Below, piece after piece: positions 29,921 to 57,448 of a stretch of 64,000 bases of DNA. The position numbers and the translations under genes are program-made. Numbering within the stretch: the first letter of the stretch is position 1; every line of letters begins with the position of its first letter. The notes under the pieces were generated by a model that saw nothing but the letters and a program-made list of their open reading frames with translations, was not told where the DNA came from and made no database searches. This stretch comes from Deltaproteobacteria bacterium (GTDB lineage Bacteria; Desulfobacterota; GWC2-55-46; JADFVP01), in NCBI GenBank assembly GCA_024275045.1, contig JAJRZX010000036.1:19615-83614 (forward strand). Reading direction: 5' to 3'.

Positions 29921-30169
29921 ATGATTGAGGTACGGTTTTTTGCCATGCTGAAAAAGCTCTCCGGTACCGGCGCCAGGCAGTACGAGGTGAGTGAGCCCAT
30001 TACTGTGCTTGAGCTTAAACAGTTGCTAAAAGAAGACATGCCCGCGCTTTCAGAGGTCCTTGATTCGCGCTCTGTGCTGGTCTCGGTAAACGAGGAGTTC
30101 GCAAGAGATGATGAGCTTGTGGCAGACGGCGATGTGGTGGGGCTTTTGCCGCCTTTTTCAGGCGGTTAA
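29921..30169 (+). CDS. moaD: Molybdopterin synthase sulfur-carrier subunit MoaD
   Basis: An 82 aa ThiS/MoaD fold ending ...FSGG-stop, immediately upstream of moaE. Confidence 0.8.
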   Translation: MIEVRFFAMLKKLSGTGARQYEVSEPITVLELKQLLKEDMPALSEVLDSRSVLVSVNEEFARDDELVADGDVVGLLPPFSGG

Positions 30170-30202: not shown

Positions 30203-30628
30203 ATGAGTACGCTTATTGCGATTCAGGAAGGTCCTTTTTCAGTAGATACGCTTCAGGCCGAGGTTAAGAAAACCTCAAAAGGCATTGGCGCGCTGGTGAG
30301 TTTTACAGGCACCGGCAGAGACCTCTCAAAGGGCGTAGATATTAAGGGCCTTGATTTTGAGCACTACCCGGGCATGGCCGAGAAAAAGCTCATGGATATA
30401 AGAAAGCGTGCCCTTCTGAACTTTGACATTATAGAGATGGCCATAATTCACAGAGTGGGTCACATTGATATAGGCGAGGATATTGTGCTTATTGTAGCTG
30501 CCTCTGCCCATCGAAATGATGCCTTTATGGCCTGCGAGTGGGCTATTACGGAGTTAAAGCGCACCACCCCAATATGGAAGAGCGAGACTACTGCCACAGG
30601 TGATGTCTGGGTTACGGACACCCCTTGA
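30203..30628 (+). CDS. moaE: Molybdopterin synthase catalytic subunit MoaE
   Basis: A MoaE family protein of 141 aa. Confidence 0.85.
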   Translation: MSTLIAIQEGPFSVDTLQAEVKKTSKGIGALVSFTGTGRDLSKGVDIKGLDFEHYPGMAEKKLMDIRKRALLNFDIIEMAIIHRVGHIDIGEDIVLIVAASAHRNDAFMACEWAITELKRTTPIWKSETTATGDVWVTDTP

Positions 30629-41681: not shown

Positions 41682-41755
41682 TGGAGCGGGCGATGGGAAT
41701 CGAACCCACGTGTGCAGCTTGGGAAGCTGCCATTCTACCATTGAATCACGCCCGC
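41682..41755 (-). tRNA. tRNA-Gly (anticodon CCC) with encoded CCA
   Basis: The reverse complement folds as a cloverleaf: acceptor GCGGGCG/CGCCCGC, D-arm ATTC..GAAT, anticodon stem GCAGC/GCTGC with loop TTCCCAA, T-arm GTGGG-TTCGATT-CCCAT. Confidence 0.85.
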
Positions 41756-45473: not shown

Positions 45474-45632
45474 ATCTTATCCAGAGTGGCGGAGGGACTG
45501 GCCCGATGAAACCACAGCAACCGGTACCGTAAAAGGTATGACAGGTGCTAAATCCAGCAGAGACGGTTAAACGTCTCTGGAAGATAAGAAGAATTACTGG
45601 ACACTCTTCTTATTAAAGAAGGGTTTTTTTTT
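45474..45632 (+). ncRNA. SAM-I (S-box) riboswitch with intrinsic terminator
   Basis: P1 runs 5' ATCTTATCCAGAG to 3' CTCTGGAAGATAAGA. Conserved cores present are GGCGGAGGGACTGGCCCGATGAAACC, GCAACC and AGGTGCTAAATCCAGCAGAG. An 8-bp terminator stem with a T9 tract follows. The antiterminator is GATAAGAAG pairing with CTTCTTAT. Confidence 0.85.
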
Positions 45633-45733
45633 GCCCAAGACCGCTCTCTCAATGTGTGAACAGGGGGCGTGGATACAGGTGGTTTTGTAACTTTAAATAT
45701 TTAACGTAAAGTCATTCTACAGGAGATGTTTAT

Positions 45734-46987
45734 ATGAAGTACATGAAAGGATTAAAGTGCAGGGAGTGCGCAAAGACATATCCCCTGGACCCCATCCATG
45801 TCTGCGAGCTCTGTTTCGGCCCACTTGAGGTGGATTATGATTATGATAATATTGCCAAGGTGCTTACAAAAGACCTTATTACAGGCAGGGCGCCCAATAT
45901 GTGGAGATACAGAGAGCTTCTTCCCATAGACGCCGAGCCCTCGGTTGGCCTTAACTCGGGTTTTACGCCTCTTATACGGGCCTATAACCTCGGCGAGGCA
46001 CTTGGTGTAAAGGAGCTTTACATTAAGAACGACGCCGTGAACTTTCCCACGCTCTCCTTTAAGGACCGCGTGGTCTCCGTTGCCATTTCGCGTGCCATAG
46101 AGATGGGGTTTGACGTAATAGCCTGCGCCTCCACGGGCAACCTTGCCAACTCCGTTGCCGCAAATTCCGCTGCCTGCGGCCTTGACAGTTACGTCTTTGT
46201 GCCCTACGACCTTGAGCAGACCAAGATTACGGGCACCATTGTCTACGGCACCAACCTTGTTGGCATAAAAGGCACCTATGACGAGGTGAACAGGCTCTGC
46301 AGCGAGATAGGCGGTAAATACGGCTGGGCCTTTGTAAATATTAACATCAGGCCATTTTACGCAGAGGGTTCAAAGACCTTTGGTTACGAGATAGCCGAGC
46401 AGCTTGGGTGGAAGCTGCCGCAGCACGTTATCGTGCCAATGGCCGGGGGCTCTCTTATTACAAAGATATGGAAGGCATTTAAAGAGTTCAAGGCCCTGGG
46501 TTTTGTTGACAGCGCTCCTGCCAGGATATACGGAGCGCAGGCCACGGGCTGCGCCCCCATAGTAACTGCCGTAAAGGAAAAGAGCGAGCTTATACGTCCG
46601 GTAAAACCCGATACCATCGCAAAGTCTCTTGCTATCGGCAACCCCGCGGACGGCTTTTATTCAGCCCGTACCATTCGCGATAGCGGCGGCTGGGCAGAGG
46701 ACGTATCTGATGATGAGATAATCGAGGCAATGAAGCTCCTGGCCGAGACAGAGGGCATATTCGCCGAGACAGCAGGCGGCGTGACGGTAGGGGTGACAAA
46801 GAAACTCATTGAGCAGGGACGCATTGCCCGTGACGAGTCCATTGTTATCTCTGTTACGGGTAACGGCCTTAAGACTCAGGAGTGCCTTGCGGGCAAGATC
46901 TCAGAGCCTCCTGTAATAGAGGCGAAGCTGGCCGAGTTCGACGCACTTGTGGATGGCGGCAAGATGAAAAAAGCCGCTATCAAATAA
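45734..46987 (+). CDS. Threonine-synthase-family PLP enzyme with an N-terminal zinc ribbon. It may be a genuine threonine synthase or an O-phosphohomoserine-dependent homocysteine synthase (MetM-like).
   Basis: PLP lysine in the SFKDR context, a Trp-synthase-beta fold, and an N-terminal C-x2-C...C-x2-C. It sits directly behind the S-box. Confidence 0.75.
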   Translation: MKYMKGLKCRECAKTYPLDPIHVCELCFGPLEVDYDYDNIAKVLTKDLITGRAPNMWRYRELLPIDAEPSVGLNSGFTPLIRAYNLGEALGVKELYIKNDAVNFPTLSFKDRVVSVAISRAIEMGFDVIACASTGNLANSVAANSAACGLDSYVFVPYDLEQTKITGTIVYGTNLVGIKGTYDEVNRLCSEIGGKYGWAFVNINIRPFYAEGSKTFGYEIAEQLGWKLPQHVIVPMAGGSLITKIWKAFKEFKALGFVDSAPARIYGAQATGCAPIVTAVKEKSELIRPVKPDTIAKSLAIGNPADGFYSARTIRDSGGWAEDVSDDEIIEAMKLLAETEGIFAETAGGVTVGVTKKLIEQGRIARDESIVISVTGNGLKTQECLAGKISEPPVIEAKLAEFDALVDGGKMKKAAIK

Positions 46988-47207: not shown

Positions 47208-48194
47208 ATGACGGACCATTACATAGAGGATAAGACTAACAGGGTTGACCTTGACCTTGAGAAACTCAAAGGAAAGGTTAACTTCAATGACCTTAAATCC
47301 GGGGGGTTTATAAAGCAGAAGCAGAAAGACCTCTTTACCGTGAGGCTGCGCTGTCCGGGCGGCATGATGACCACGGATAAGCTTATTGAGATTTCAAAGC
47401 TTGCCAAAAAATACAGCAAAGAAGGCATGGTGCATTTCAGCTACCGTCAATCCTTTGAGATACTCTATGTGGATTACAGGGACTTTCACGCACTGGTTTC
47501 GGAGCTTGAGGCGCTGGGGCAGAAGGTTGCCTCTTGCGGCCCCCGTGTCAGGGTGCCTACTGCCTGCGGTGGATGCGAGTACAACCCCAACGGACTTATA
47601 GACGCGCAGGCCATGGCCCGTATGGTGGACAAAGAATTCTTCGGCACAAATACGCCCCATAAGTTCAAGACCTCTTTCTCGGGCTGTCCCATTGATTGCT
47701 CAAGAACCGTTGAGATGGACCTTGGTTTTCAGGGCGTTGTAGACCCCGAGTGGGTGCAGGACCTCTGCACGGGCTGCACCATCTGCTCTGAAGCATGTAA
47801 GGAAGGCGCCATTGAGGCCCATCCCGATACAGGTGAACCAATATTCGATGTTAATAAATGCCTCTACTGCGCTGACTGCATTCGCGCCTGCCCAACAGAG
47901 GCTTGGAAGCCCAGGCGTCACGGATTTATCGTACGCATAGGCGGTAAACACGGCCGTCACCCCCTCGAGGGCGTTGAGGTATGCCGCTTTCTCCCTGAAG
48001 ACAAGGTAAGTCATGCCATTGATATGACCGTAAAGTGGTACAAGGCAAACGGCAAGAGTTTCGAGAGGATAGGAAGCACGCTTCAGAGGCTTGGCATGGA
48101 TAGTTATGTTAAGCACATGGCCCCGGTATTTGGAGACATGGCCGTGGTTCCAGAGCATCCGCCTACTGACAGGCCCCTTATAGACCAGGGCTGA
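47208..48194 (+). CDS. Small dissimilatory-type sulfite-reductase-like protein (Dsr-LP/alSir-like) with an inserted 2x[4Fe-4S] ferredoxin domain
   Basis: Putative siroheme/Fe-S Cys cluster ...TACGGCEY...SGCPIDC, followed by two ferredoxin motifs CTGCTICSEAC and CLYCADCIRACP. 328 aa. Confidence 0.55.
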   Translation: MTDHYIEDKTNRVDLDLEKLKGKVNFNDLKSGGFIKQKQKDLFTVRLRCPGGMMTTDKLIEISKLAKKYSKEGMVHFSYRQSFEILYVDYRDFHALVSELEALGQKVASCGPRVRVPTACGGCEYNPNGLIDAQAMARMVDKEFFGTNTPHKFKTSFSGCPIDCSRTVEMDLGFQGVVDPEWVQDLCTGCTICSEACKEGAIEAHPDTGEPIFDVNKCLYCADCIRACPTEAWKPRRHGFIVRIGGKHGRHPLEGVEVCRFLPEDKVSHAIDMTVKWYKANGKSFERIGSTLQRLGMDSYVKHMAPVFGDMAVVPEHPPTDRPLIDQG

Positions 48195-48359
48195 TATTAG
48201 TAGGGGCCGGTCTGGTAAAGACAGCTTATAAGCAGGTGGTACTTAAGAGAAACGTTAAAAGAATCAAGAGCGCCAAGACCGCGGTCGGCTTTATGTACCG
48301 CTTAGCGAGATGATATAACCTCCCTCAGGGATAACGATTAAGAAGAGCAGTGATAAAAG

Positions 48360-48605
48360 GTGGATATGGACGATATAACGGCAAAAGAGAGCATTGATCT
48401 ACGGGGCGTAATGTGCCCCACCAACTTTGTAAAGACAAAGCTTAAGCTTGAGGCCATGGACCCCGGGGATATTCTTGAGGTGGTTCTTGATGCAGGCGAA
48501 CCCATTGCCAACGTGCCAAAGAGCGTCAAGGAAGAGGGACATAAGATTGTCAAGGTAATTAAAGACGACGGCTCATTCAGGATTATGATAGAAGTCTCTG
48601 AGTAG
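48360..48605 (+). CDS. TusA/SirA-like sulfurtransferase (two-layered alpha/beta sandwich)
   Basis: 81 aa with the conserved Cys in LRGVMCPTNFVKTK (TusA CPxP-like position) and a DILEVV-type pattern. Confidence 0.55.
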   Translation: MDMDDITAKESIDLRGVMCPTNFVKTKLKLEAMDPGDILEVVLDAGEPIANVPKSVKEEGHKIVKVIKDDGSFRIMIEVSE

Positions 48606-48634
48606 CCTGTAATTCAACTTTTAAGGAGGCCGAA

Positions 48635-48919
48635 ATGCCAGTAAAGGTAAGGATACCAACACCGCTCAGAAAGATAACAAAGGACAACGATGAGGTTCTG
48701 GCCGAGGGGACTACTGTTACCGAGGTTATAGAGGACCTTGAGAAGAACTACCCCGGCCTCAAAGAGAGGATCTGCGAGGACGACGGCAACCTCCGCCGTT
48801 TTGTAAATCTTTATCTCAATGACGAGGACATACGTTTTAAGGATAACCTCAATACCAGCGTCTCTGATAATGACGAGTTATCCATTATCCCGGCCATAGC
48901 CGGCGGAGGTGCGGGTTGA
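48635..48919 (+). CDS. ThiS/MoaD-family sulfur-carrier protein with the C-terminal extension ...AGGG-AG
   Basis: 94 aa with a beta-grasp pattern. A Gly-Gly is followed by two extra residues (AG) before the stop. The stop overlaps the TTG start of the next gene (GTTGA). Confidence 0.6.
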   Translation: MPVKVRIPTPLRKITKDNDEVLAEGTTVTEVIEDLEKNYPGLKERICEDDGNLRRFVNLYLNDEDIRFKDNLNTSVSDNDELSIIPAIAGGGAG

Positions 48920-49152
48920 AAAAAAAGGTCTATCTTACTTATCCCTCCGATAAGGTTAAGGAGCCTCTTCTTTGCCTGTGTTCGCGCAAATTCAAGGTCT
49001 TAACCAATATCAGGCAGGCTTCTGTAACGGATAAGATTGGAATAGTTGCCCTTGAGCTTGAGGGCGAGGCCTCTGAGATAGAGAAGGCCATGGACTTTTT
49101 TACGGAAAACGGTGTAATGGTCGAGCCTATTGAGATGGATATTATAGTTTAG
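48916..49152 (+). CDS. NIL-domain (MetN C-terminal-like, ACT-fold) small protein
   Basis: 78 aa. RKFKVLTNIRQASVTDKIGIVALELEGE...GVMVEPI parallels E. coli MetN C2 ([30 protein letters not shown]...VKVEVLGYV). It is translationally coupled to the carrier gene. Confidence 0.5.
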   Translation: MKKKVYLTYPSDKVKEPLLCLCSRKFKVLTNIRQASVTDKIGIVALELEGEASEIEKAMDFFTENGVMVEPIEMDIIV

Positions 49153-49178
49153 CTCCGTTCTGGTCTGTATGTTTTCTG

Positions 49179-49230
49179 CCCGCTCTTGAGACCATCTGAA
49201 CACATGGCCGAGAGCGGGTATTTTGTATTC
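49179..49230 (+). terminator. Putative terminator after the NIL gene (stem CCCGCTCT...AGAGCGGG followed by TATTTTGTATT)
   Basis: An 8-bp GC-rich stem with a large loop and a U-rich tail. A promoter-like TTGACA follows at 49271. Confidence 0.35.
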
Positions 49231-49402
49231 ATCAGCCTTCTTTTTTCCCGTAAATTCGCTGAAATTATTCTTGACAAATGCGGTAGGGTATTATAAATTT
49301 ATATACTTGATATTTTTACTAAGGTAATAGAAATACCTTATAAAAAAAGGGGTTTTACATGGACTCTCTATTATTGGTCCAATACCGCGGAAGAGGTCTT
49401 GA

Positions 49403-50362
49403 ATGAGAAAAAACAATACACTGGAGAGTTTTGAGGCAGAGAAAGGACCCTCGGCAGGCAAGGCACGGTTCTCGGCCCTTGAGCTTGTTGGTAATACGCC
49501 TCTTGTGAGGATAAACAGGATTACAAAAGACCTGCCGAGCGGTGTTGAGGTATACGCCAAGCTTGAGTCCGCCAACCACGGCGGCTCTGTAAAAGACAGA
49601 CCCGCGCTGCGCATGATTGAAGACGCGGAGAAGAGCGGGCGGCTTACAAAGGAAAAGATAATACTGGACTCCACATCAGGCAACACGGGCATTGCCTATG
49701 CCTGGATAGGCGCCGTAAAGCAACACCGCGTGGAGCTTGTGGTGCCGGAGAACGTAAGCTCAGAGCGAAAAAAGATACTTGACGCATTTGGGGCGAGGGT
49801 GATTTTCTCAAGCCCTTTTGAGGGCTCTGACGGGGCCATACGCCTTGCGTGGAAGCTATACGTGGCTAACCCCGAAAAGTACTGCAAGCTTGACCAGTAC
49901 AACAACCCCTCAAACCCCCTGGCCCATTACTACGGCACAGGGCTTGAGATTATAGAGCAGACAGGCGGGGCCATTACCCACTTTGTCACTACCATCGGCA
50001 CAGGGGGAACCATAATGGGCACCATGCGCAGGCTAAAGGAATTTAACAGCAATATTCAGGTCATCGCTGTAGAGCCTGATAACCCCATGCACGGCCTTGA
50101 GGGTCTTAAACACATGGCCTCATCAATAGTGCCGGGCATATATCACGAGGACTCTCTTGACGGCAAGGTCCCTGCCTCAACAGAGGAGTCTTATGAGATG
50201 ACCAAGAGGCTCGCGAGAGAAGAGGGGCTTCTTGTGGGCCAGTCTTCAGGGGCGGCCATGCTTGGAGCCCTTAAGGTGGCAAGCGGCCTTACCGAGGGAG
50301 TGGTGGTAACCATCTTTCCCGATGGCGGAGACAAATACCTCTCCACACGTCTCTGGGAGTAG
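49403..50362 (+). CDS. Cysteine synthase (CysK/CysM family; possibly thiocarboxylate-dependent, CysM-like)
   Basis: PLP lysine in the SVKDR context, and GNTGIA, GTGGT motifs. 319 aa. Confidence 0.85.
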   Translation: MRKNNTLESFEAEKGPSAGKARFSALELVGNTPLVRINRITKDLPSGVEVYAKLESANHGGSVKDRPALRMIEDAEKSGRLTKEKIILDSTSGNTGIAYAWIGAVKQHRVELVVPENVSSERKKILDAFGARVIFSSPFEGSDGAIRLAWKLYVANPEKYCKLDQYNNPSNPLAHYYGTGLEIIEQTGGAITHFVTTIGTGGTIMGTMRRLKEFNSNIQVIAVEPDNPMHGLEGLKHMASSIVPGIYHEDSLDGKVPASTEESYEMTKRLAREEGLLVGQSSGAAMLGALKVASGLTEGVVVTIFPDGGDKYLSTRLWE

Positions 50363-50695
50363 GGTACATAGGGCGGCAGGGGGGACGTGCGCAGGGGCAA
50401 GTGGGTGCCGGGGTGAGATAACCGGGGTAGTGCGGAGTTTATATGTAGTGGTGCTTTGGGTCCAATAGGAAGTAAGTACCCCATGACGCACGATTTAATT
50501 GTTTTCATTACGTATTGATTTACAAGACCTTCTTAACTTTAAAATTTAAAATCTGAGATTTTTTTAAAGGGCCTTTGCGAGACCCTTTTAGAGTTTTTGC
50601 AGGTAAGAGCATTTTTTTCTACAGACAGATACGCGTAAGAAGAATATGGGGGCAAAGAGCCCTCTTAACTTAAAAATAAACTTAAGGGGTAAGTC

Positions 50696-51163
50696 ATGGG
50701 TCTGCTCTCAAAGTTCAGGAAAAAAGAAAAATTGTATGTTCCAAAGGAATTTTATGACGATATGATTGAGCACGCCAAGCTGGAGTATCCGCATGAGTGC
50801 TGCGGCGTTCTTATAGGCAACTCCATGATGGGGGACAGGAAGATATTTCACACCGAGAGGTGCACTAACCTCAATAAAGAGCGCGCCCATGACAGGTATC
50901 TCATGGACCCCAGAGAGATAAACCTCGCTGATAAGGGTGCACGCGCGCAGTCCCTTGAGATTATGGGGTTTTACCACTCGCACCCGGATCATCCCGACAG
51001 GCCCTCGGAGTACGACCGTGAGGTGGCCCACCCCGGGTACTCGTACATAATACTCTCGGTAAAGGACGGCAAAGAGGTTACGGCAAAGTCCTGGACATTT
51101 GCCGAGCTTGATGAGCCCTTTGTGGAAGAGGCCATTGAGGTAACAGTATCAAAGTGGAAGTAA
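50696..51163 (+). CDS. JAMM/MPN+ zinc metalloprotease (Mec+/HcyD/QbsD-like)
   Basis: The complete JAMM motif E...HSH-x7-S-x2-D (HECCG ... HSHPDHPDRPSEYD). Confidence 0.75.
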   Translation: MGLLSKFRKKEKLYVPKEFYDDMIEHAKLEYPHECCGVLIGNSMMGDRKIFHTERCTNLNKERAHDRYLMDPREINLADKGARAQSLEIMGFYHSHPDHPDRPSEYDREVAHPGYSYIILSVKDGKEVTAKSWTFAELDEPFVEEAIEVTVSKWK

Positions 51164-51286
51164 GAGTTTCTTTTAAGGTATAAATAAAGGTTGTATTTAT
51201 CTTATCATAAAGCTTTTTTGCGGTAGGGTTACATCTATAACCGTGAAATAACTTTTTCTCTTTTTTTTAAGGGGGTAGTTCATAAG

Positions 51287-52096
51287 ATGGACTTTACAGA
51301 TGAGCAGATAGAGCGTTACTCAAGACACATTATACTGCCCGAGGTAGGGGGAAAAGGTCAGACAAAACTCCTTGAGTCCAAGGTCTTTGTCCTTGGAGCA
51401 GGAGGGCTTGGCTCACCGGCGCTTCTGTACCTTGCAGCCGCGGGTGTTGGCACAATAGGCATCGCAGACGGCGATGTGGTGGATGTAAGTAACCTGCAGC
51501 GTCAGATAATCCATGACAACAATACAGTGGGCATGGCAAAGGTGGAGAGCGCTCGTAAATCCATCGAGGCCCTTAACCCCGATGTGGTGGTTAATACCTT
51601 TAACAGCCGTCTTGGTATAGAGAATATCCGCGAGGTGCTCCGTGACTACGATGTTGTGCTTGACGGCTCTGATAACTTTCCAACGCGTTACCTTATGAAC
51701 GACGCCTCCTTTTTTGAGGGCAAGACCCTTATCTCGGGCAGCATGTTCAGGTTTGACGGACAGGTCTCTGTCTTTAAGCCGGCTGATGGGTACCCCTGCT
51801 ACAGGTGCCTCTATCCCGAGCCGCCGCCAAAGGGCATGGTACCGTCCTGTCAGGAGGCCGGTGTGCTTGGCGCTCTTGCCGGTGTTATCGGTGTGCTGCA
51901 GGCTGTTGAGGCAATTAAAGAGATACTCTCCATAGGCAAGGTCCTTGCAGGAGAGCTCTTGATATTTGACGCCCTTGGTATGAGCTTTCGTAAAGTCAAG
52001 GTGCGGCGCGACCCTGATTGCGCGCTCTGCGGCGAAAATGCCACTATAAAGGAACTCTCGCTCTATGAGCAGGCACCCTGTGAGCTGCGTACCTGA
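51287..52096 (+). CDS. ThiF/MoeB-family E1-like adenylyltransferase (no rhodanese domain)
   Basis: Nucleotide loop GAGGLGSP, an RQ motif, and Zn-binding C-x2-C...C-x2-C (PCYRC, DCALCG). Confidence 0.85.
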   Translation: MDFTDEQIERYSRHIILPEVGGKGQTKLLESKVFVLGAGGLGSPALLYLAAAGVGTIGIADGDVVDVSNLQRQIIHDNNTVGMAKVESARKSIEALNPDVVVNTFNSRLGIENIREVLRDYDVVLDGSDNFPTRYLMNDASFFEGKTLISGSMFRFDGQVSVFKPADGYPCYRCLYPEPPPKGMVPSCQEAGVLGALAGVIGVLQAVEAIKEILSIGKVLAGELLIFDALGMSFRKVKVRRDPDCALCGENATIKELSLYEQAPCELRT

Positions 52097-52235
52097 TACG
52101 TTCTGACGGGTCTTTTCCGGTGATAGAAAAGAGGCGTAAAGAGGTCTTACTTTAAAGGCAGGTCATCTTGCCTCTTAAGGTAAACCCTTAACTCCGCTGA
52201 GGGGAGCCGCACCTGCAAGAGGCAGTTGAACTGTT

Positions 52236-53462
52236 GTGATAAGAAAAAATTACTTTAAGAACCCCGGTGCGTTGAAGATAGACCTTATGCTGAGGGGGGC
52301 GGCCATTGAAGACCCTGTTGCCAAGGCGCGGGCCTGCGGGGCCACCGGCATAGACATACTCCTGCCTAAAAAAATACTTGTAAACATACCCTGCGAAGAC
52401 TGGTTTACCGTGCGCTCGCCTTACGTGATTAAAAAATCCGCCGGTAAAAAGGGGTATATCCTTACCAACGGCAGTGACAGCGTACCTGTAAGCATACTTG
52501 ATAGACCGGAGTTTTACAGCCGCAAGACCGCTACCGGGGTGCCTTTTGGTGATATTGCCGTAACGCACGGCAGTTACACCGTTATAACGCCTGATAAGAG
52601 GTGCGGTTTTTTTAAATCCAGCGCCCAGTGCAGGTACTGCGCCGGGAACTTCAGCACCGATGCCGCTGAGAATGGCGGACGCGTCTATACCGTAGAAGAG
52701 GTCCTTGAGACAGTTAAGGCCGTGCTCAAGGAAAAGGCGTCAGGCATAATATACCTCTCCATAGGTTTTAGCGATGGCGATGACGGGGGCATTAAGTTTC
52801 TCGAACCCTATGTAAAGGCGATTAAGTCCCATTTTAACTGCCTTGTCGCGGTAGAGGCCCTGCCCCCTGCCAGTAACGAGTGGATAGACAGGGCATACGC
52901 CTTTGGCGTTGACTCAATACTTTATAATCTGGATATCTTTGATAAGGAGCTTTTTTCTGTAATATGCCCGGGCAGGGCCGGCCTTATAGGAAGACAGCGT
53001 ACTCTTGATGCCCTTAAATACGCCGCTGGTATCTTTGCAAACGGCACAGTGGCCTCGCACCTCATAGTTGGCCTTGAACCCCCGGGCTCTACGATTATGG
53101 GCATTGATTTTCTTACGGACTCAGGTGTTGTGCCTATACTGCCCATATTCCGCCCCTCAAAGGACAGGCCCCTTGATGTGACGGACCTTGATGCAGAGGT
53201 GATAATACCGGTGTACCGGCACCTGTACAAGACGCTTAAGAAAAAAGGCATCAACTTCAACTGGGTCCGTGATATAAGCATGGTTACTACCCCTGTTGAG
53301 GGCAGATATCTTTTAAATGACGAGAAGAGCTCATCGCCGTTTCTTGATAATTTTTACGAGTCCAGGCTTGGCATGAAAACAGCCTGGGGGCTAAGCGCAA
53401 TCAGAAGACGGCTAAGGGTTAAAAAAATTAAAAAAGAGGACCCCCCCGAGGGTTCTCCGTAG
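52236..53462 (+). CDS. Hypothetical protein with a C-x9-C-x2-C cysteine cluster followed by a TIM-barrel-like region. Possibly a non-canonical radical-SAM/Fe-S enzyme.
   Basis: 408 aa containing CGFFKSSAQCRYCAGNF. No canonical C-x3-C-x2-C is present. Glycine-rich (GGG-like) segments follow. Confidence 0.35.
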   Translation: MIRKNYFKNPGALKIDLMLRGAAIEDPVAKARACGATGIDILLPKKILVNIPCEDWFTVRSPYVIKKSAGKKGYILTNGSDSVPVSILDRPEFYSRKTATGVPFGDIAVTHGSYTVITPDKRCGFFKSSAQCRYCAGNFSTDAAENGGRVYTVEEVLETVKAVLKEKASGIIYLSIGFSDGDDGGIKFLEPYVKAIKSHFNCLVAVEALPPASNEWIDRAYAFGVDSILYNLDIFDKELFSVICPGRAGLIGRQRTLDALKYAAGIFANGTVASHLIVGLEPPGSTIMGIDFLTDSGVVPILPIFRPSKDRPLDVTDLDAEVIIPVYRHLYKTLKKKGINFNWVRDISMVTTPVEGRYLLNDEKSSSPFLDNFYESRLGMKTAWGLSAIRRRLRVKKIKKEDPPEGSP

Positions 53463-53480
53463 CAGCAGTGGAGTTGTCCC

Positions 53481-54905
53481 GTGAGAGTAGAGATTGACAG
53501 AAGACCGATATGGGTAATTCTCGCCGGCAAGGCGCTGAGACCTGTTTTCTTTCTCTTGCTTGCACTGGGGTTTATCCTCTTTCTTCAGCTTCCCGTGCCT
53601 GAGGGCCTTGGGACAGGGGGGATGAGGGCAATAGCTGTTTTTTTGCTATGCCTCGTGCTCTGGGTCTCAAACGCAGTGCCCGTGGCTATTACCGGGCTCT
53701 TTGCCATAGTGCTTGTCCCGCTCCTCGGGGTGCTGCCGCGCGGGGCCACGTACTCGCTATTTGGCAATGAGGCAGTGTTTTTTATACTGGGGGCCTTTAT
53801 ACTCTCAGGCGCGGTCATGCAGTCAGGGCTCTCGAACAGAGTGGCCCTGCGCCTCATGGAGAAGCACGGCGGGTCTCCGAAACGCCTTATAATAAGCATT
53901 TTTTTGCTTGCAGCGGCCCTCTCGTTTGTTATGAGCGAGCATGCCGTTGCGGCCATGCTCTTTCCCATTGTGCTTGAGATATCAAAGAGTCTGAAACTCA
54001 GGCCCGGCGAGTCCAATTACGGAAAGCTCCTCTTCTTCGCCCTTGCCTGGGGTTCTGTCATAGGCGGGGTTGGGACTTTTCTTGGCGGAGCGCGTGTGCC
54101 GCTGGCAATGGGAATACTCAAAGAAACAACGGGCTCTACCATAGGTTTTTTGGATTATACCGTGGCCGTGGCGCCCCTTGTGGTGGTCCTCTTAATCGTG
54201 GGGTATATCGTGCTGACGAGGTTTTTTCCCGTTGATATCGATGGTGTGGAGAACGCCCACAAGGTAATCGTGAGGCGCGCGCGGGCCCTTGGAAAGGTAC
54301 GCCCAAGAGAGTACGCCGTTGGTTTAATACTTGGCATTACCATATTGCTCTGGATAACAATCGGCAAGACCGTAGGGCTTGCCGCCATTGCCATGTTATC
54401 TGTTATGGCCCTATTTGTCCTTAAACTCGTAAAATGGCGCGAGATTGAGGAGTACGTGAACTGGGGCATAATACTCATGTACGGCGGCGCCATTATACTC
54501 GGCACTGCCCTTGACAGGAGCGGCGCCGCAAAGTGGATGGTAGACGCCATTATGACGCAGTGGGCTCAGACGCCCATAACGGTTATAGCCCTCTTCTCGC
54601 TCCTGGCAATACTGCTAACAGAGTCCATGAGCAACGCCGCGGTTATCGCTGTTCTGCTGCCCGTGAGCATTGGCATGGCGGGCCGTACCAATATGAGCCC
54701 CGAGGTCCTTACCTATGTGGTGGCCATTCCCGCGGGGCTGGCCTTTATGCTGCCCATGAGTACCCCGGCTAACGCCATTGCCGTATCAAGCGATTACATA
54801 TCGGTTCGTGATATGGCAAAGGGCGGGGTGATAATGTTTTTAACCTCCTGGGTTACATTTAACCTCATGGCGCACTTTTATTGGCCCCTCATAGGGCTGA
54901 GATAG
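53481..54905 (+). CDS. DASS/SLC13-family (ArsB/NhaD-fold) anion transporter, plausibly a sulfate permease
   Basis: 474 aa with about 12-14 TM helices and an internal-repeat architecture typical of CitT/SLC13. It sits in the sulfate-assimilation context. Confidence 0.7.
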   Translation: MRVEIDRRPIWVILAGKALRPVFFLLLALGFILFLQLPVPEGLGTGGMRAIAVFLLCLVLWVSNAVPVAITGLFAIVLVPLLGVLPRGATYSLFGNEAVFFILGAFILSGAVMQSGLSNRVALRLMEKHGGSPKRLIISIFLLAAALSFVMSEHAVAAMLFPIVLEISKSLKLRPGESNYGKLLFFALAWGSVIGGVGTFLGGARVPLAMGILKETTGSTIGFLDYTVAVAPLVVVLLIVGYIVLTRFFPVDIDGVENAHKVIVRRARALGKVRPREYAVGLILGITILLWITIGKTVGLAAIAMLSVMALFVLKLVKWREIEEYVNWGIILMYGGAIILGTALDRSGAAKWMVDAIMTQWAQTPITVIALFSLLAILLTESMSNAAVIAVLLPVSIGMAGRTNMSPEVLTYVVAIPAGLAFMLPMSTPANAIAVSSDYISVRDMAKGGVIMFLTSWVTFNLMAHFYWPLIGLR

Positions 54906-54988
54906 GTCTGTACTTTAAATAGGCGGGTTTATGCAAAATAATGGTAATAAACCCGCCATTTTGGTTTACGAACTCATTTAATTAGGTT

Positions 54989-55459
54989 ATGATGACCAAT
55001 ACTAAGATACTGCTTGTTTTATCCACTCATGTGTACTCTGATAAGGCCATTGAGTACGCCGTCAGGCGGGCCAGGGAGGAAGAGAGGCAGCTTGTAGCTT
55101 TTTTTCTTCTTGAGTCTGAGCTTGCCGAGGAGGCGTCTGAGAGGTTCTCGGACATTGGTTTTACAGGCGACAGGCCCTCGGCCACATTATCTGAGTCTCT
55201 TATGCGCGAGTACCGGCAGAGGGGGTATGAGGCCCTTGGCAGGGCGCAGATAAAGGCCATGGAGGATGGTGTGGACTTTGAGCCTCTGTTAAAAGAGGGG
55301 CCTTATGTATCTACCATACTTGAGGTAATAAGGGCACACGGTATAGGTCTTACCGTTATACAGAGGCGAAAGGAGAGGTCCTTTCTGCATTACTTTAAAA
55401 AAGGTTTATCCGTAAAGGTTAAAGAGGCGGCTTCATGCGAGGTCGTTATCATCGAGTAA
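54989..55459 (+). CDS. UspA-like alpha/beta domain protein (ATP-motif-less)
   Basis: 156 aa with weak USP-like periodicity. No glycine-rich ATP loop. Confidence 0.3.
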   Translation: MMTNTKILLVLSTHVYSDKAIEYAVRRAREEERQLVAFFLLESELAEEASERFSDIGFTGDRPSATLSESLMREYRQRGYEALGRAQIKAMEDGVDFEPLLKEGPYVSTILEVIRAHGIGLTVIQRRKERSFLHYFKKGLSVKVKEAASCEVVIIE

Positions 55460-55486
55460 ATACAAGCTGAATAAAGGGAGGTAGAG

Positions 55487-56191
55487 ATGGCAGGAAAGCA
55501 GTGGAGTGAAGAAGAACTTAAGGCAGTATCCGATGAGCTTGAAGATAAGGGACCCCAGGCCGCCATTCAATGGGCTGTGGATAATTTCGATACACAGGAC
55601 TTATCTCTTGCCTGTAGTTTCGGCGCCGAGGACGTTGCTCTTGTGGATATGCTTGTGAAGATAAAACCTGATGCAAGGATTTTTTATCTTGATACAAATA
55701 AGCTCTTCAAGGAGACCATTGATGTAATGGAGCGCCTTAAAGAGAGGTACAATATTAACCCTGAGAAGTATACCTCAAAGATGAGCCTTGCCGAGCAGGC
55801 CGCCGAGTTCGGCGATGAGCTCTGGGCAAAGGATCCGAAGAAGTGCTGCGACATAAGAAAGATAACACCTCTTAAAGAAGCTCTCTCAGGGCTTAGTGCC
55901 TGGATTACCGGTATAAGAAGGGATCAGGCACCGGCAAGGGCCAACGCCCCTGTAGTTGGCTGGGACGCCATGTTCAACCTTGTGAAGATAAACCCGCTGG
56001 TAAAGTGGACGAGCGAGGATGTGTGGGATTATATCCGCGCCAATAACGTGCCTTACAATGAGCTTCATGACAAGAATTACCCCTCAATAGGCTGTGAGCC
56101 ATGCACCAATGAGGTGAAGCCAGGCGAGGACCCAAGGGCCGGAAGATGGGCCGGATTTAAGAAGACAGAGTGCGGACTTCACGACAAGTAA
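55487..56191 (+). CDS. cysH: Assimilatory adenylyl-sulfate (APS) reductase, Fe-S type (CysH family)
   Basis: The PAPS_reduct fold plus a Cys-Cys pair (KKCCDIRK) and C-x2-C (GCEPCT) for the [4Fe-4S] cluster. The C-terminal ECGLH carries the catalytic Cys. Confidence 0.85.
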   Translation: MAGKQWSEEELKAVSDELEDKGPQAAIQWAVDNFDTQDLSLACSFGAEDVALVDMLVKIKPDARIFYLDTNKLFKETIDVMERLKERYNINPEKYTSKMSLAEQAAEFGDELWAKDPKKCCDIRKITPLKEALSGLSAWITGIRRDQAPARANAPVVGWDAMFNLVKINPLVKWTSEDVWDYIRANNVPYNELHDKNYPSIGCEPCTNEVKPGEDPRAGRWAGFKKTECGLHDK

Positions 56192-56284
56192 TCGTAAGAA
56201 CGCCTGTGAGGTAATTGCGGAAGCATAGTGATTAATATAACTTTATCTCTTGCAACTAAACAGTCTTAGGGAGGATTTTCAAAG

Positions 56285-57448
56285 GTGGATACATTAATCG
56301 CCCCTCATGGCGGGGTGCTTATAAACAGGGTCGTAGAGGGTAAGGCCCGTCTTGATCTGGAAAAAGCCTCGATAAATATGAACACCCTTGTTCTTAATGA
56401 GAGGGAGATCTCAGACCTTGAGATGATAGCAACAGGCGGTTTCAGCCCTCTTGCCGGTTTTATGTGTCACGATGATTATCACTCTGTGATGGATACCATG
56501 ACGCTCACTAATGGTCTGCCCTGGACCATACCTGTTACTCTCTCTGCCACAGAGGCAGAGGCGGCTGAGCTGAGAGAGGGTACGGACGTGGCCCTTAATA
56601 ACGAGAACGGCGAGCTTCTGGCCATCCTTCATCTTGAGCAGATATTCAAGCACGACCCTGAGAAAGAGGCCCTTCGCGTTTACGGAACCCCTGATGAGGC
56701 ACACCCAGGTGTGAAAAACGTCTATGCAATGGGCTCCCAACTCCTTGGCGGCAAGATATCTCTGCTTGAGCGTACCGAGTATGACCAGTTTAACGAGTAC
56801 CGCAGAGACCCCATTGAGACAAGGCAGCTCTTTAAGAAGAACGGCTGGCGCCGCGTTGTGGGTTTTCAGACCAGAAACCCCATACACAGGGCCCATGAGT
56901 ACATTCAAAAATGCGCGCTTGAGACAGTTGACGGTCTGATGATACATCCTCTTGTAGGCGAGACAAAGTCCGATGATATACCCGCGGATGTGCGTATGAA
57001 CTGCTACGAGACGCTTATGGCCAAGTACTATCCAGCCGACAGGGTGGTGCTCTCCGTATATCCCGCGGCCATGCGCTACGCAGGGCCCCGCGAGGCTGTC
57101 TTTCACGCACTTATACGCAAGAACTACGGATGCACCCACTTTATCGTTGGCAGAGACCATGCTGGCGTAGGCGGCTACTACGGAACCTTTGACGCTCATC
57201 TTATATTTAACAAGTTTGAGCCCGAGGCCATAGGCATAGCCCCCATGTTCTTTGATTATACCTTTCACTGCAAGAGTTGCGGCGGCATGGCCTCGTACAA
57301 GACATGCCCCCATGATTCGTCTGAGCACATTACCTTATCAGGCACAAAGGTGCGGGAGATGCTGAGGGCCGGCACGTGTCCGCCGCCCGAGTTCTCAAGG
57401 CCCGAGGTTGCAGAGGTCCTTATTAAGGCCATGAAATCCGGCGCATAA
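56285..57448 (+). CDS. sat: Sulfate adenylyltransferase (ATP sulfurylase)
   Basis: QTRN...H motif ([13 protein letters not shown]), a PUA-like N-domain and GRDHAG. A GTG start is assumed. Confidence 0.9.

Follow-up and report, generated by a model that had tools for sequence, protein, structure and literature searches.

The question raised by this locus is why a ThiS/MoaD-type sulfur carrier is encoded with extra residues behind its Gly-Gly, and what such a carrier is for. The locus lies in a 64,000-nucleotide stretch of DNA (the window) from a Deltaproteobacteria bacterium (GenBank assembly GCA_024275045.1, contig JAJRZX010000036.1, positions 19,615 to 83,614 of the forward strand). A sequence-only reading of the window had proposed that a nearby JAMM peptidase must trim the carrier before it can be adenylated and thiocarboxylated. 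We consider it probable that the carrier serves the incorporation of sulfur from sulfate into homocysteine and cysteine, with a JAMM enzyme that hydrolyzes the resulting adducts and trims the tail, a tail shaped by the overlap with a downstream NIL-domain gene, and the NIL protein as a partner of the carrier. The elements on which this proposal turns are the following.

48635..48919, forward strand: ThiS/MoaD beta-grasp sulfur-carrier protein, CysO/MetO-like, 94 residues, blocked C-terminus (Pfam ThiS PF02597, E=1.6e-18)
48902..48907, forward strand: codons GGC GGA of Gly90-Gly91, the presumed activation site (from where the profile matches stop and where the terminal GG of CysO aligns)
48908..48916, forward strand: codons GGT GCG GGT of the tail Gly92-Ala93-Gly94, proposed to be removed before adenylation (variable across homologues)
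48905..48909, forward strand: GGAGG Shine-Dalgarno sequence for the NIL gene, formed by the Gly91-Gly92 codons GGA GGT (read from the sequence)
48916..49152, forward strand: stand-alone NIL-domain protein, 78 residues, TTG start (Pfam NIL PF09383, E=3.3e-13; a gene called by NCBI)
50696..51163, forward strand: JAMM/MPN+ metallopeptidase, proposed tail trimmer and hydrolase of carrier-Cys and carrier-homocysteine adducts (Pfam Prok-JAB, E=2.2e-25)
51287..52096, forward strand: MoeB/ThiF-type E1 adenylyltransferase, 269 residues (Pfam ThiF, E=1.2e-78, the sole domain)

The carrier protein ends ...SIIPAIAGGGAG, with IIPAIAGGGAG at its C-terminus, and the Gly-Gly is blocked, as the sequence-only reading had described. 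This feature is not peculiar to the window. All of the 120 nearest protein clusters share an unchanged IIPAIAGG, and residues extend beyond it in 115 of them. The tail has two residues in 68 clusters and three in 26, while 9 clusters have a single residue, 12 a longer extension and 5 none; 69 distinct tails occur in this set, and across carrier homologues the length ranges from 0 to 35 residues. The tail is a family trait, neither a chance occurrence nor a sequencing error.

The exact position of the Gly-Gly in the window protein was probed by alignment, because the sequence offers two overlapping pairs. The closest solved structure is Mycobacterium tuberculosis CysO (3dwg_C, E=2e-22), the terminal GG of which aligns to Gly90-Gly91. 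Residue 91 is also where both the Pfam ThiS and the NCBIfam SAMP1 profile matches end, and Gly90-Gly91 is invariant in 30 aligned homologues. The three-residue tails in the nearest clusters include GAG, GAA, GAV, GGV, GKP, GCF, RGL, KGL, REL and RRI; the last four belong to sister carriers of equal length with Arg or Lys at position 92, in which residues 90-91 are therefore the only Gly-Gly. On the basis of the profile ends, the CysO alignment and these sisters, the tail of the window carrier is most likely the tripeptide GAG following Gly91, rather than the dipeptide AG that had first been suggested. Cleavage of the same protein after Gly92, which would free Ala-Gly and leave a product ending AIAGGG, seems doubtful. 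Gly91-Gly92 is likewise a Gly-Gly pair, the commonest tail in the family is two residues long, and a rule of "last GG plus two residues" would fit the Shine-Dalgarno spacing described below; against this stand the alignment to CysO, the profile ends and the sisters that possess a Gly-Gly only at 90-91. E1 enzymes, moreover, bind a C-terminus of fixed length relative to the beta-grasp fold.

The tail codons are also part of the start region of the next gene. The TTG of the NIL gene (48916..48918) overlaps the TGA of the carrier gene (48917..48919) in the sequence GTTGA, a 4-nucleotide overlap noted in the sequence-only reading and borne out here. Downstream of the stop at 48871, the NIL frame contains no start codon other than the TTG at 48916. 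The junction reads GGAGG, then the six-nucleotide spacer TGCGGG, then TTG; the carrier's own start, AAGGAGG-N6-ATG, has the identical spacing. We examined this geometry in 166 loci plus the window, and the 4-nucleotide overlap was present in 25 loci (19 non-redundant). All 25 encode a tailed carrier, with one residue in 1, two in 16, three in 4, eight in 2 and 35 in 2, and none (0/25) ends in a free GG. The NIL start codon in these loci is TTG in 20, ATG in 3 and GTG in 2. The GGAGG ends exactly 6 nucleotides 5' of the NIL start in 21 of the 25, and it lies at the Gly-Gly codons in 19 of the 25 compared with only 3 of 59 loci that have no NIL gene. Where NIL follows without overlap, at a gap of 0-200 nucleotides, 31 of 53 loci encode a free-GG carrier; in two close relatives with free-GG carriers the gap is 190 and 76 nucleotides. 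The short tails among the 120 nearest clusters never end in Lys, Glu, Gln or Met, residues that have no NNT codon, as is expected if the last codon needs a T to form TTGA. The length and the last codon of the tail are thus best explained at the level of DNA, by the Shine-Dalgarno spacer and the TTGA overlap for NIL. The proposal that the tail is due solely to the NIL overlap proved too strong and was set aside, as tails also precede E1 or JAMM genes or no close gene. Tails in lineages without a downstream NIL gene limit the explanation to the lineage of the window rather than to every tail.

The same comparison bears on the possibility that a mis-called stop or a frameshift error produced the tail, and that the genuine product is a carrier with a free GG or a fusion of ThiS with NIL. 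The frames of the two genes are one nucleotide apart, a run of eight A lies past the junction, and genuine in-frame fusions exist elsewhere. However, the same 4-nucleotide overlap with a correctly spaced Shine-Dalgarno sequence recurs in 24 other, independently assembled loci with different tails, and gene callers predict identical products of 94 and 78 residues. We regard an artefact as barely credible, and the sequencing error named in the sequence-only reading as a potential refutation did not materialize. A programmed -1 frameshift at G-GGT-TGA that would yield a fusion was also considered and rejected, since the pre-stop codons of relatives are non-slippery (for example ATA TCT TGA and GCG CTT TGA).

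Two lineages differ in the form of the tail. In loci L006 (from position 2578) and L099 and in protein P0028, AIAGG is followed by a 35-residue tail that is Gly-rich and then basic (AGGAGGPGGAGGRGFLGHERARVNKRRHKRE...), which may stem from expansion of a repeat or from faulty assembly. This L006/L099 lineage nevertheless retains the TTGA overlap with NIL, where a second GGGAGGA precedes the NIL start. Carriers of Candidatus Poribacteria (L008, L009, L012, L015, L029 and L052) have tails of 4-7 residues (SSDDERD, VSVC, ISLS and others). In these loci the JAMM gene directly follows the carrier gene, abutting or overlapping it, and NIL comes after JAMM; CysM and a CysH-like gene lie upstream, with no ThrC-like gene, so that the same parts are wired differently.

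The sequence-only reading had tied the JAMM protein to the masked carrier, and the components it named are in place. The JAMM motif is complete, with Glu34 upstream and H94-S-H-x7-S-x2-D. The E1 matches the NCBIfam MoeB subfamily PRK05690 (318.9 bits, cutoff 266), lacks a rhodanese domain and carries a Cys4 site of two CxxC pairs, C171/C174 and C245/C248. The JAMM gene starts 1.78 kb and the E1 gene 2.37 kb past the carrier stop. The link between the JAMM protein and the tail, however, held only in part. In 74 well-flanked loci, JAMM was nearby in 21 of 35 with a tail longer than one residue and in 9 of 39 with a shorter tail or none (Fisher p=0.002, uncorrected), but it tracked CysM more closely, being nearby in 27 of 41 loci with CysM compared with 3 of 33 without. 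The carriers of two groups of close relatives, P0080 (77% identical, locus L081) and P0024 (84% identical, L082-84), end in a free GG, and their loci retain the identical gene order with JAMM between CysM and E1. The tail alone therefore does not account for the JAMM gene.

These observations bear on the view that the tail is a purpose-built mask, the carrier a pro-protein and the JAMM enzyme a dedicated maturation protease that removes Ala-Gly and so gates activation. Tails in 115 of the 120 nearest clusters, the higher frequency of JAMM near tails and the precedents of QbsE/QbsD and CxnE/CxnF would fit such a scheme. The presence of JAMM at the same place in free-GG relatives argues against it, as do the 69 different tails, which give no sign of a recognition or regulatory element, the dependence of tail length and last codon on the DNA overlap, and the homology that places the Gly-Gly at 90-91, so that the removed peptide would be GAG. 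We judge this view unlikely; nothing here points to the tail as a dedicated regulatory mask. By analogy with Mec+, the core role of the JAMM protein is probably the hydrolysis of carrier-Cys and carrier-homocysteine adducts. Because cleavage of a peptide after Gly-Gly is the same chemistry, such an enzyme could also remove tails, which could then drift.

The genes around the carrier suggest the pathway in which it acts.

45474..45590, forward strand: S-adenosylmethionine (SAM, S-box) riboswitch aptamer, leader of the operon (Rfam RF00162, 85.6 bits, gathering cutoff 44.4, E=7.5e-19)
45603..45634, forward strand: terminator-like hairpin, 9-bp stem followed by the T-run TTTTTTTTGC (consensus scan)
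45734..46987, forward strand: ThrC-like pyridoxal phosphate enzyme with N-terminal zinc ribbon (Pfam PALP, E=2e-68; NCBIfam PRK08197, 312.7 bits)
47208..48194, forward strand: small sulfite reductase-like protein with a 2x[4Fe-4S] ferredoxin insert (NIR_SIR, E=6e-23; NIR_SIR_ferr, E=2e-15; Fer4)
48360..48605, forward strand: TusA/SirA-like sulfurtransferase (Pfam TusA, E=2.4e-21)
49403..50362, forward strand: CysM-like cysteine synthase (NCBIfam cysM TIGR01138; CysM matches in the PDB)
53481..54905, forward strand: permease of the Na+/sulfate symporter family (Pfam Na_sulph_symp, E=2.3e-60)
55487..56191, forward strand: CysH, adenosine 5'-phosphosulfate (APS) or 3'-phosphoadenosine 5'-phosphosulfate (PAPS) reductase (PAPS_reduct, E=4.7e-55; PRK02090, 282 bits)
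56285..57448, forward strand: ATP sulfurylase, Sat (Pfam ATP-sulfurylase, E=1.9e-98, plus PUA_2)

The hairpin after the aptamer is likely the expression platform of the riboswitch. The sequence-only reading had left out the commonest partner of the carrier, the ThrC-like (MetM-like) gene, which lies under this SAM riboswitch and shares its operon with sulfite reductase and TusA. Structures of ThrC align to the ThrC-like enzyme from residue 52-58 onward (E=8e-60), and we propose that it is a MetM-like homocysteine synthase that uses the carrier thiocarboxylate. The CysM-like protein matches the PDB entries for E. coli CysM (E=1e-67) and M. tuberculosis CysM (E=1e-58), the E. coli protein scoring equally well, and its genomic context suggests that it too depends on the carrier. 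The cluster reads as one pathway.

The complete 13-gene order is also present in related metagenome-assembled genomes named Thermodesulfobacteriota or Deltaproteobacteria, and the small sulfite reductase gene is conserved in close relatives. More widely, carrier relatives were confirmed in at least 595 species representatives of many phyla (595 of 600 pattern-matched stretches). The contig index contained no exact copy of the window carrier. Neighbors were counted in 73 loci flanked by 4.5 kb or more on each side: a ThrC-like gene lay within 4.5 kb of the carrier in 56 and directly upstream, ending no more than 400 nucleotides away, in 43; NIL was near the carrier in 50, CysM in 39, and JAMM and E1 in 25 each. 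By cmscan, a SAM riboswitch precedes the ThrC-like gene in 7 of 8 related loci, an actinomycete included, and its core was matched by blastn in about 70 loci. The actinomycete locus (L037) encodes a ThrC-like/carrier pair at 51% and 59% identity, with the riboswitch.

A different system could be imagined in which carrier, E1 and JAMM perform protein conjugation of the SAMP/TtuB type, with JAMM as the deconjugase and the metabolic neighbors incidental. The carrier passes the NCBIfam SAMP1 cutoff (71.1 bits, cutoff 60), its homologues bear the NCBI name "ubiquitin-like small modifier protein 1", and the E1 and JAMM proteins show matches to UbaA and desampylase. Those two matches fall below their thresholds, at 337 bits for UbaA (cutoff 450) and 78.9 for desampylase (cutoff 130). 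The best solved relative of the carrier is the metabolic protein CysO, and the SAM-riboswitch operon with ThrC-like enzyme, sulfite reductase and TusA, near CysM and the sulfate-assimilation set, recurs across phyla. Conjugation is therefore a very improbable function for this gene set. The window also contains a molybdopterin-type carrier, which serves as a comparator.

29921..30169, forward strand: MoaD with a free ...FSGG end (Pfam ThiS, E=6.6e-15)
30203..30628, forward strand: MoaE, following MoaD (Pfam MoaE, E=3.4e-33)

A gene with a MoCF_biosynth domain (MoaB/Mog-like) comes after MoaE. The free GG and the adjacent moaE agree with the view that the two carrier systems of the window are distinct.

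For the sulfur cluster, the catalytic steps, substrates, cleavage site and role of NIL set out here are those that we infer from the observed sequence features, domains, synteny, riboswitch, overlap and Shine-Dalgarno statistics, and fusions. Sulfate would be taken up by the permease and activated by Sat, then reduced by CysH and subsequently by the small sulfite reductase. The E1 would adenylate the Gly-Gly carboxylate of the carrier, and the acyl-adenylate would be converted to the thiocarboxylate by sulfide or by a persulfide borne on TusA. The ThrC-like enzyme, acting in a MetM-like manner probably on O-phosphohomoserine, and CysM would take the thiocarboxylate as nucleophile to give carrier-amino-acid adducts. 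Hydrolysis of these adducts by the JAMM enzyme would restore the carrier and set homocysteine or cysteine free. This GG-specific activity would also strip the tail from newly made carrier, most likely as Gly92-Ala93-Gly94 with the cut after Gly91. At the junction, GGA GGT would act as the Shine-Dalgarno sequence and six nucleotides of the tail as the spacer, with the last tail codon ending in T so that xxT-TGA creates the TTG. NIL would be an equimolar partner or a ligand sensor of the carrier.

Several points weigh against this proposal. The CysM-like protein scores 367.6 bits to TIGR01138, below the cutoff of 394.2. The loci with the carrier/NIL overlap come mostly from one clade, and neither their co-occurrence counts nor those of JAMM in the 74 loci were corrected for phylogeny. 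Tails are also found where the next gene, starting within a few nucleotides, is E1 or JAMM, and some tails have no close downstream gene at all. Finally, some loci with tailed or fused carriers have no JAMM gene within 8-10 kb (L167, L168 and Zetaproteobacteria), the fusion locus L167 having none within 8 kb. In such loci the JAMM gene may be elsewhere in the genome, or another peptidase may act.

The gene cluster of the window is a further member of the known thiocarboxylate amino-acid pathways. It combines known modules, namely a MetM-like and a CysM-like consumer, a single carrier, a single JAMM protein, a rhodanese-less E1 with TusA, and sulfite reductase. A precedent in gene content is the neighborhood classed as type 4e, with ThiS/MoaD, JAB and an E1 that "always lacks" rhodanese, together with SirA, sulfate transporters, PAPS reductase, ATP sulfurylase and sulfite reductase (Iyer, Burroughs & Aravind 2006, PMC1779556 Table 1). 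All of the listed components are found in the window, from 47208 to 57448. In type 4e the condensing enzyme is O-acetylhomoserine sulfhydrylase, whereas the window cluster has no MetY-type gene and instead encodes the ThrC-like and CysM proteins. In M. tuberculosis, CysM joins O-phosphoserine to the CysO thiocarboxylate and the JAMM protein Mec+ hydrolyzes CysO-cysteine (PMC3227635). The window resembles this CysO-CysM-Mec+-MoeZ system (PDB 3DWG) in its CysO-like carrier and, by gene order, in a CysM-like gene that adjoins JAMM, although the product of that gene falls below the NCBIfam cysM cutoff. CysO ends in a free GG and MoeZ has a rhodanese domain, whereas the window carrier is tailed, its E1 is rhodanese-less and TusA is separate. 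The NIL, ThrC-like gene and riboswitch, all present in the window, are absent from the M. tuberculosis system.

For the ThrC-like gene, the pertinent comparison is Streptomyces albulus. According to PMC12172450 and to Appendix 4 of the GapMind preprint, which cite Hasebe et al. 2024 (Appl Environ Microbiol 90:e01247-24), MetM is a homocysteine synthase homologous to ThrC that acts on O-phosphohomoserine with the thiocarboxylate of MetO; Mec matures MetO, and metM is preceded by a SAM riboswitch. The context described in those accounts was found in the window: a ThrC-homologous gene upstream of the carrier in one operon, RF00162 before the ThrC-like gene, a JAMM protein that, like Mec, would mature the carrier, and an E1 of the MoeZ/MoeB type. 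By this description the ThrC-like protein and the carrier are candidate counterparts of MetM and MetO. Compared with S. albulus, the window differs in its rhodanese-less E1, with TusA instead, and in the clustered sulfite reductase, NIL and sulfate-assimilation genes.

The sequence-only reading had drawn analogies to HcyS/HcyD and QbsE/QbsD, and both are apt. Krishnamoorthy and Begley are said to have described in 2011 a Wolinella succinogenes system of HcyS-Ala, HcyD, HcyF, Sir and MetY, in which a single JAMM protein reportedly both removes the terminal Ala and releases homocysteine. The likeness to this system and to neighborhood type 4e lies in the masked carrier, JAMM, rhodanese-less E1, SirA/TusA and sulfite reductase, in the homocysteine output, and in the presence of PAPS/APS reductase, ATP sulfurylase and sulfate transporter in one neighborhood. 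There, by contrast, MetY condenses, the tail is a single Ala and NIL is not described, whereas the window has a ThrC-like enzyme, a longer tail and NIL. Carriers with extra residues are also found in the thioquinolobactin and chuangxinmycin clusters, as QbsE (GG-CF) and CxnE (GG plus 10 residues), for which trimming by the JAMM proteins QbsD and CxnF to expose the GG was proposed (PMC5925218). Unlike the window cluster, these are secondary-metabolite clusters without sulfate-assimilation, CysM, ThrC-like or NIL genes.

The partnership with NIL is the only aspect of the locus that is possibly new. NIL domains are known from MetN, where they form the C2 regulatory domain of the methionine importer, and from the NIL-ferredoxin MA1822 of the DUF39 homocysteine pathway (PMC5764234). 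The domain (PF09383) is thus again found in a methionine or homocysteine context, but the window NIL stands alone at 78 residues, with no ferredoxin or ATPase, and is coupled, or elsewhere fused, to a ThiS-type carrier. Its sole solved relatives are the methionine-binding C-terminal domains of MetN, with weak similarity (E=0.07). Among the papers searched, none connects NIL with ThiS-type carriers. In Dehalococcoidia/Chloroflexota loci (L027, L048, L061, L073 and L078) NIL is directly upstream of the carrier, between it and the ThrC-like gene, and this reversed order implies that the NIL-carrier association survives rearrangement.

Fusions of the two proteins offer a second view of this association. 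In-frame fusion of the carrier to NIL occurs in 7 of 80 genome loci, with ...AIAGG, a short linker and then KKVYLTYP. A database search with one fusion as the query revealed at least 120 fusion clusters; the 120 best hits, of 167-189 residues, all have both the ThiS and the NIL Pfam domains, and in every one the junction Gly-Gly is kept and is followed by a short linker and the NIL start (K/R)-x-Y-L. As the window NIL begins MKKKVYLTYP, the split pair and the fusions are a single frame step apart at the junction, where the window tail sits in place of the first residues of the fusion linker. The gene geometry of the window suggests 1:1 translational coupling of carrier and NIL, as the sequence-only reading had also concluded, and the in-frame fusions elsewhere support this indirectly.

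JAMM was near 9 of the 11 fusion loci examined. A constant association of JAMM with fusions was thereby ruled out, L167 having none within the distance given above and L168 a ClpP-like gene instead. The ThiS-NIL fusion locus L168 (8001..10719) contains two ThiF-like genes and, after them, a gene for a ClpP-family protease, and a JAB gene is absent within 8 kb. Processing may fall to the ClpP-like protein instead, or the JAMM gene of that genome may lie elsewhere. An AlphaFold2 model of a natural ThiS-NIL fusion (predicted local distance difference test score 90, predicted template modeling score 0.53, with a confidence dip at the junction) indicates two independent domains with a flexible Gly-Gly region between them. 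A fixed ThiS-NIL interface was also considered, but the template modeling score and the dip gave no sign of docking.

It is possible, though somewhat short of probable in our estimation, that NIL is an unrecognized equimolar component of thiocarboxylate-dependent methionine and cysteine synthesis, produced either by reinitiation with the Gly-Gly codons as the ribosome-binding site or from a ThiS-GG-linker-NIL precursor. Such a precursor would need cleavage by JAMM at the Gly-Gly, which would make it a bacterial metabolic counterpart of the ubiquitin fusions processed by deubiquitinases. By analogy with the methionine-binding NIL domain of MetN, the protein might act as a sensor of methionine or homocysteine, or as an escort of the carrier. 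Coupled or fused as it is to the carrier, NIL merits attention as a candidate pathway component.

Current annotation presents these genes differently. In source databases, carrier homologues go by "ubiquitin-like small modifier protein 1" or by "molybdopterin synthase sulfur carrier subunit". The ThrC-like gene matches "threonine synthase" in NCBIfam (PRK08197), and the JAMM protein is labeled "Mov34/MPN/PAD-1 family protein". The GapMind preprint states that MetM homologues are often misannotated as threonine synthase, and the context of the window indicates that the carrier and ThrC-like labels are functionally misleading. Taken together, the gene set suggests that sulfate is converted to homocysteine and cysteine by a protein-thiocarboxylate route under SAM control. 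Relatives of the carrier occur in at least 595 species representatives, and such a route is relevant when methionine and cysteine prototrophy is predicted for uncultured bacteria. The locus also suggests that a "masked" carrier end can result from closely packed genes, where the Gly-Gly codons serve in addition as a Shine-Dalgarno sequence, and not from a regulatory device.

The remaining features of the region concern the spacer between NIL and CysM and two further genes of the cluster.

52236..53462, forward strand: variant radical-SAM protein (NCBIfam variant_rSAM NF045502, 169.7 bits, cutoff 125; weaker match to MSMEG_0568)
54989..55459, forward strand: universal stress protein, between the permease and cysH

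No regulatory RNA was detected upstream of the CysM, JAMM or E1 genes, Rfam giving no match at E<=1 over 49100..52300. The NIL-CysM spacer (49153..49402, 250 nucleotides) contains a promoter-like TTGACA-17-TAAATT at 49271..49299. About 110 nucleotides of this spacer are 88% identical in L085/L086 and 76% in L082-84, and in this region the spacer alone is conserved among the closest relatives. The variant radical-SAM gene keeps its place between E1 and the sulfate permease in close relatives and, at 29-46% identity, in Binatia, Zetaproteobacteria and other loci. The universal stress protein gene holds its position in every close relative (L081-L086) as well as in L170. Upstream of the sulfur cluster, a tRNA gene (41685..41755, reverse strand, Rfam 66.4 bits) stands between an aldehyde dehydrogenase gene and an HlyD/ABC-2 transporter set.

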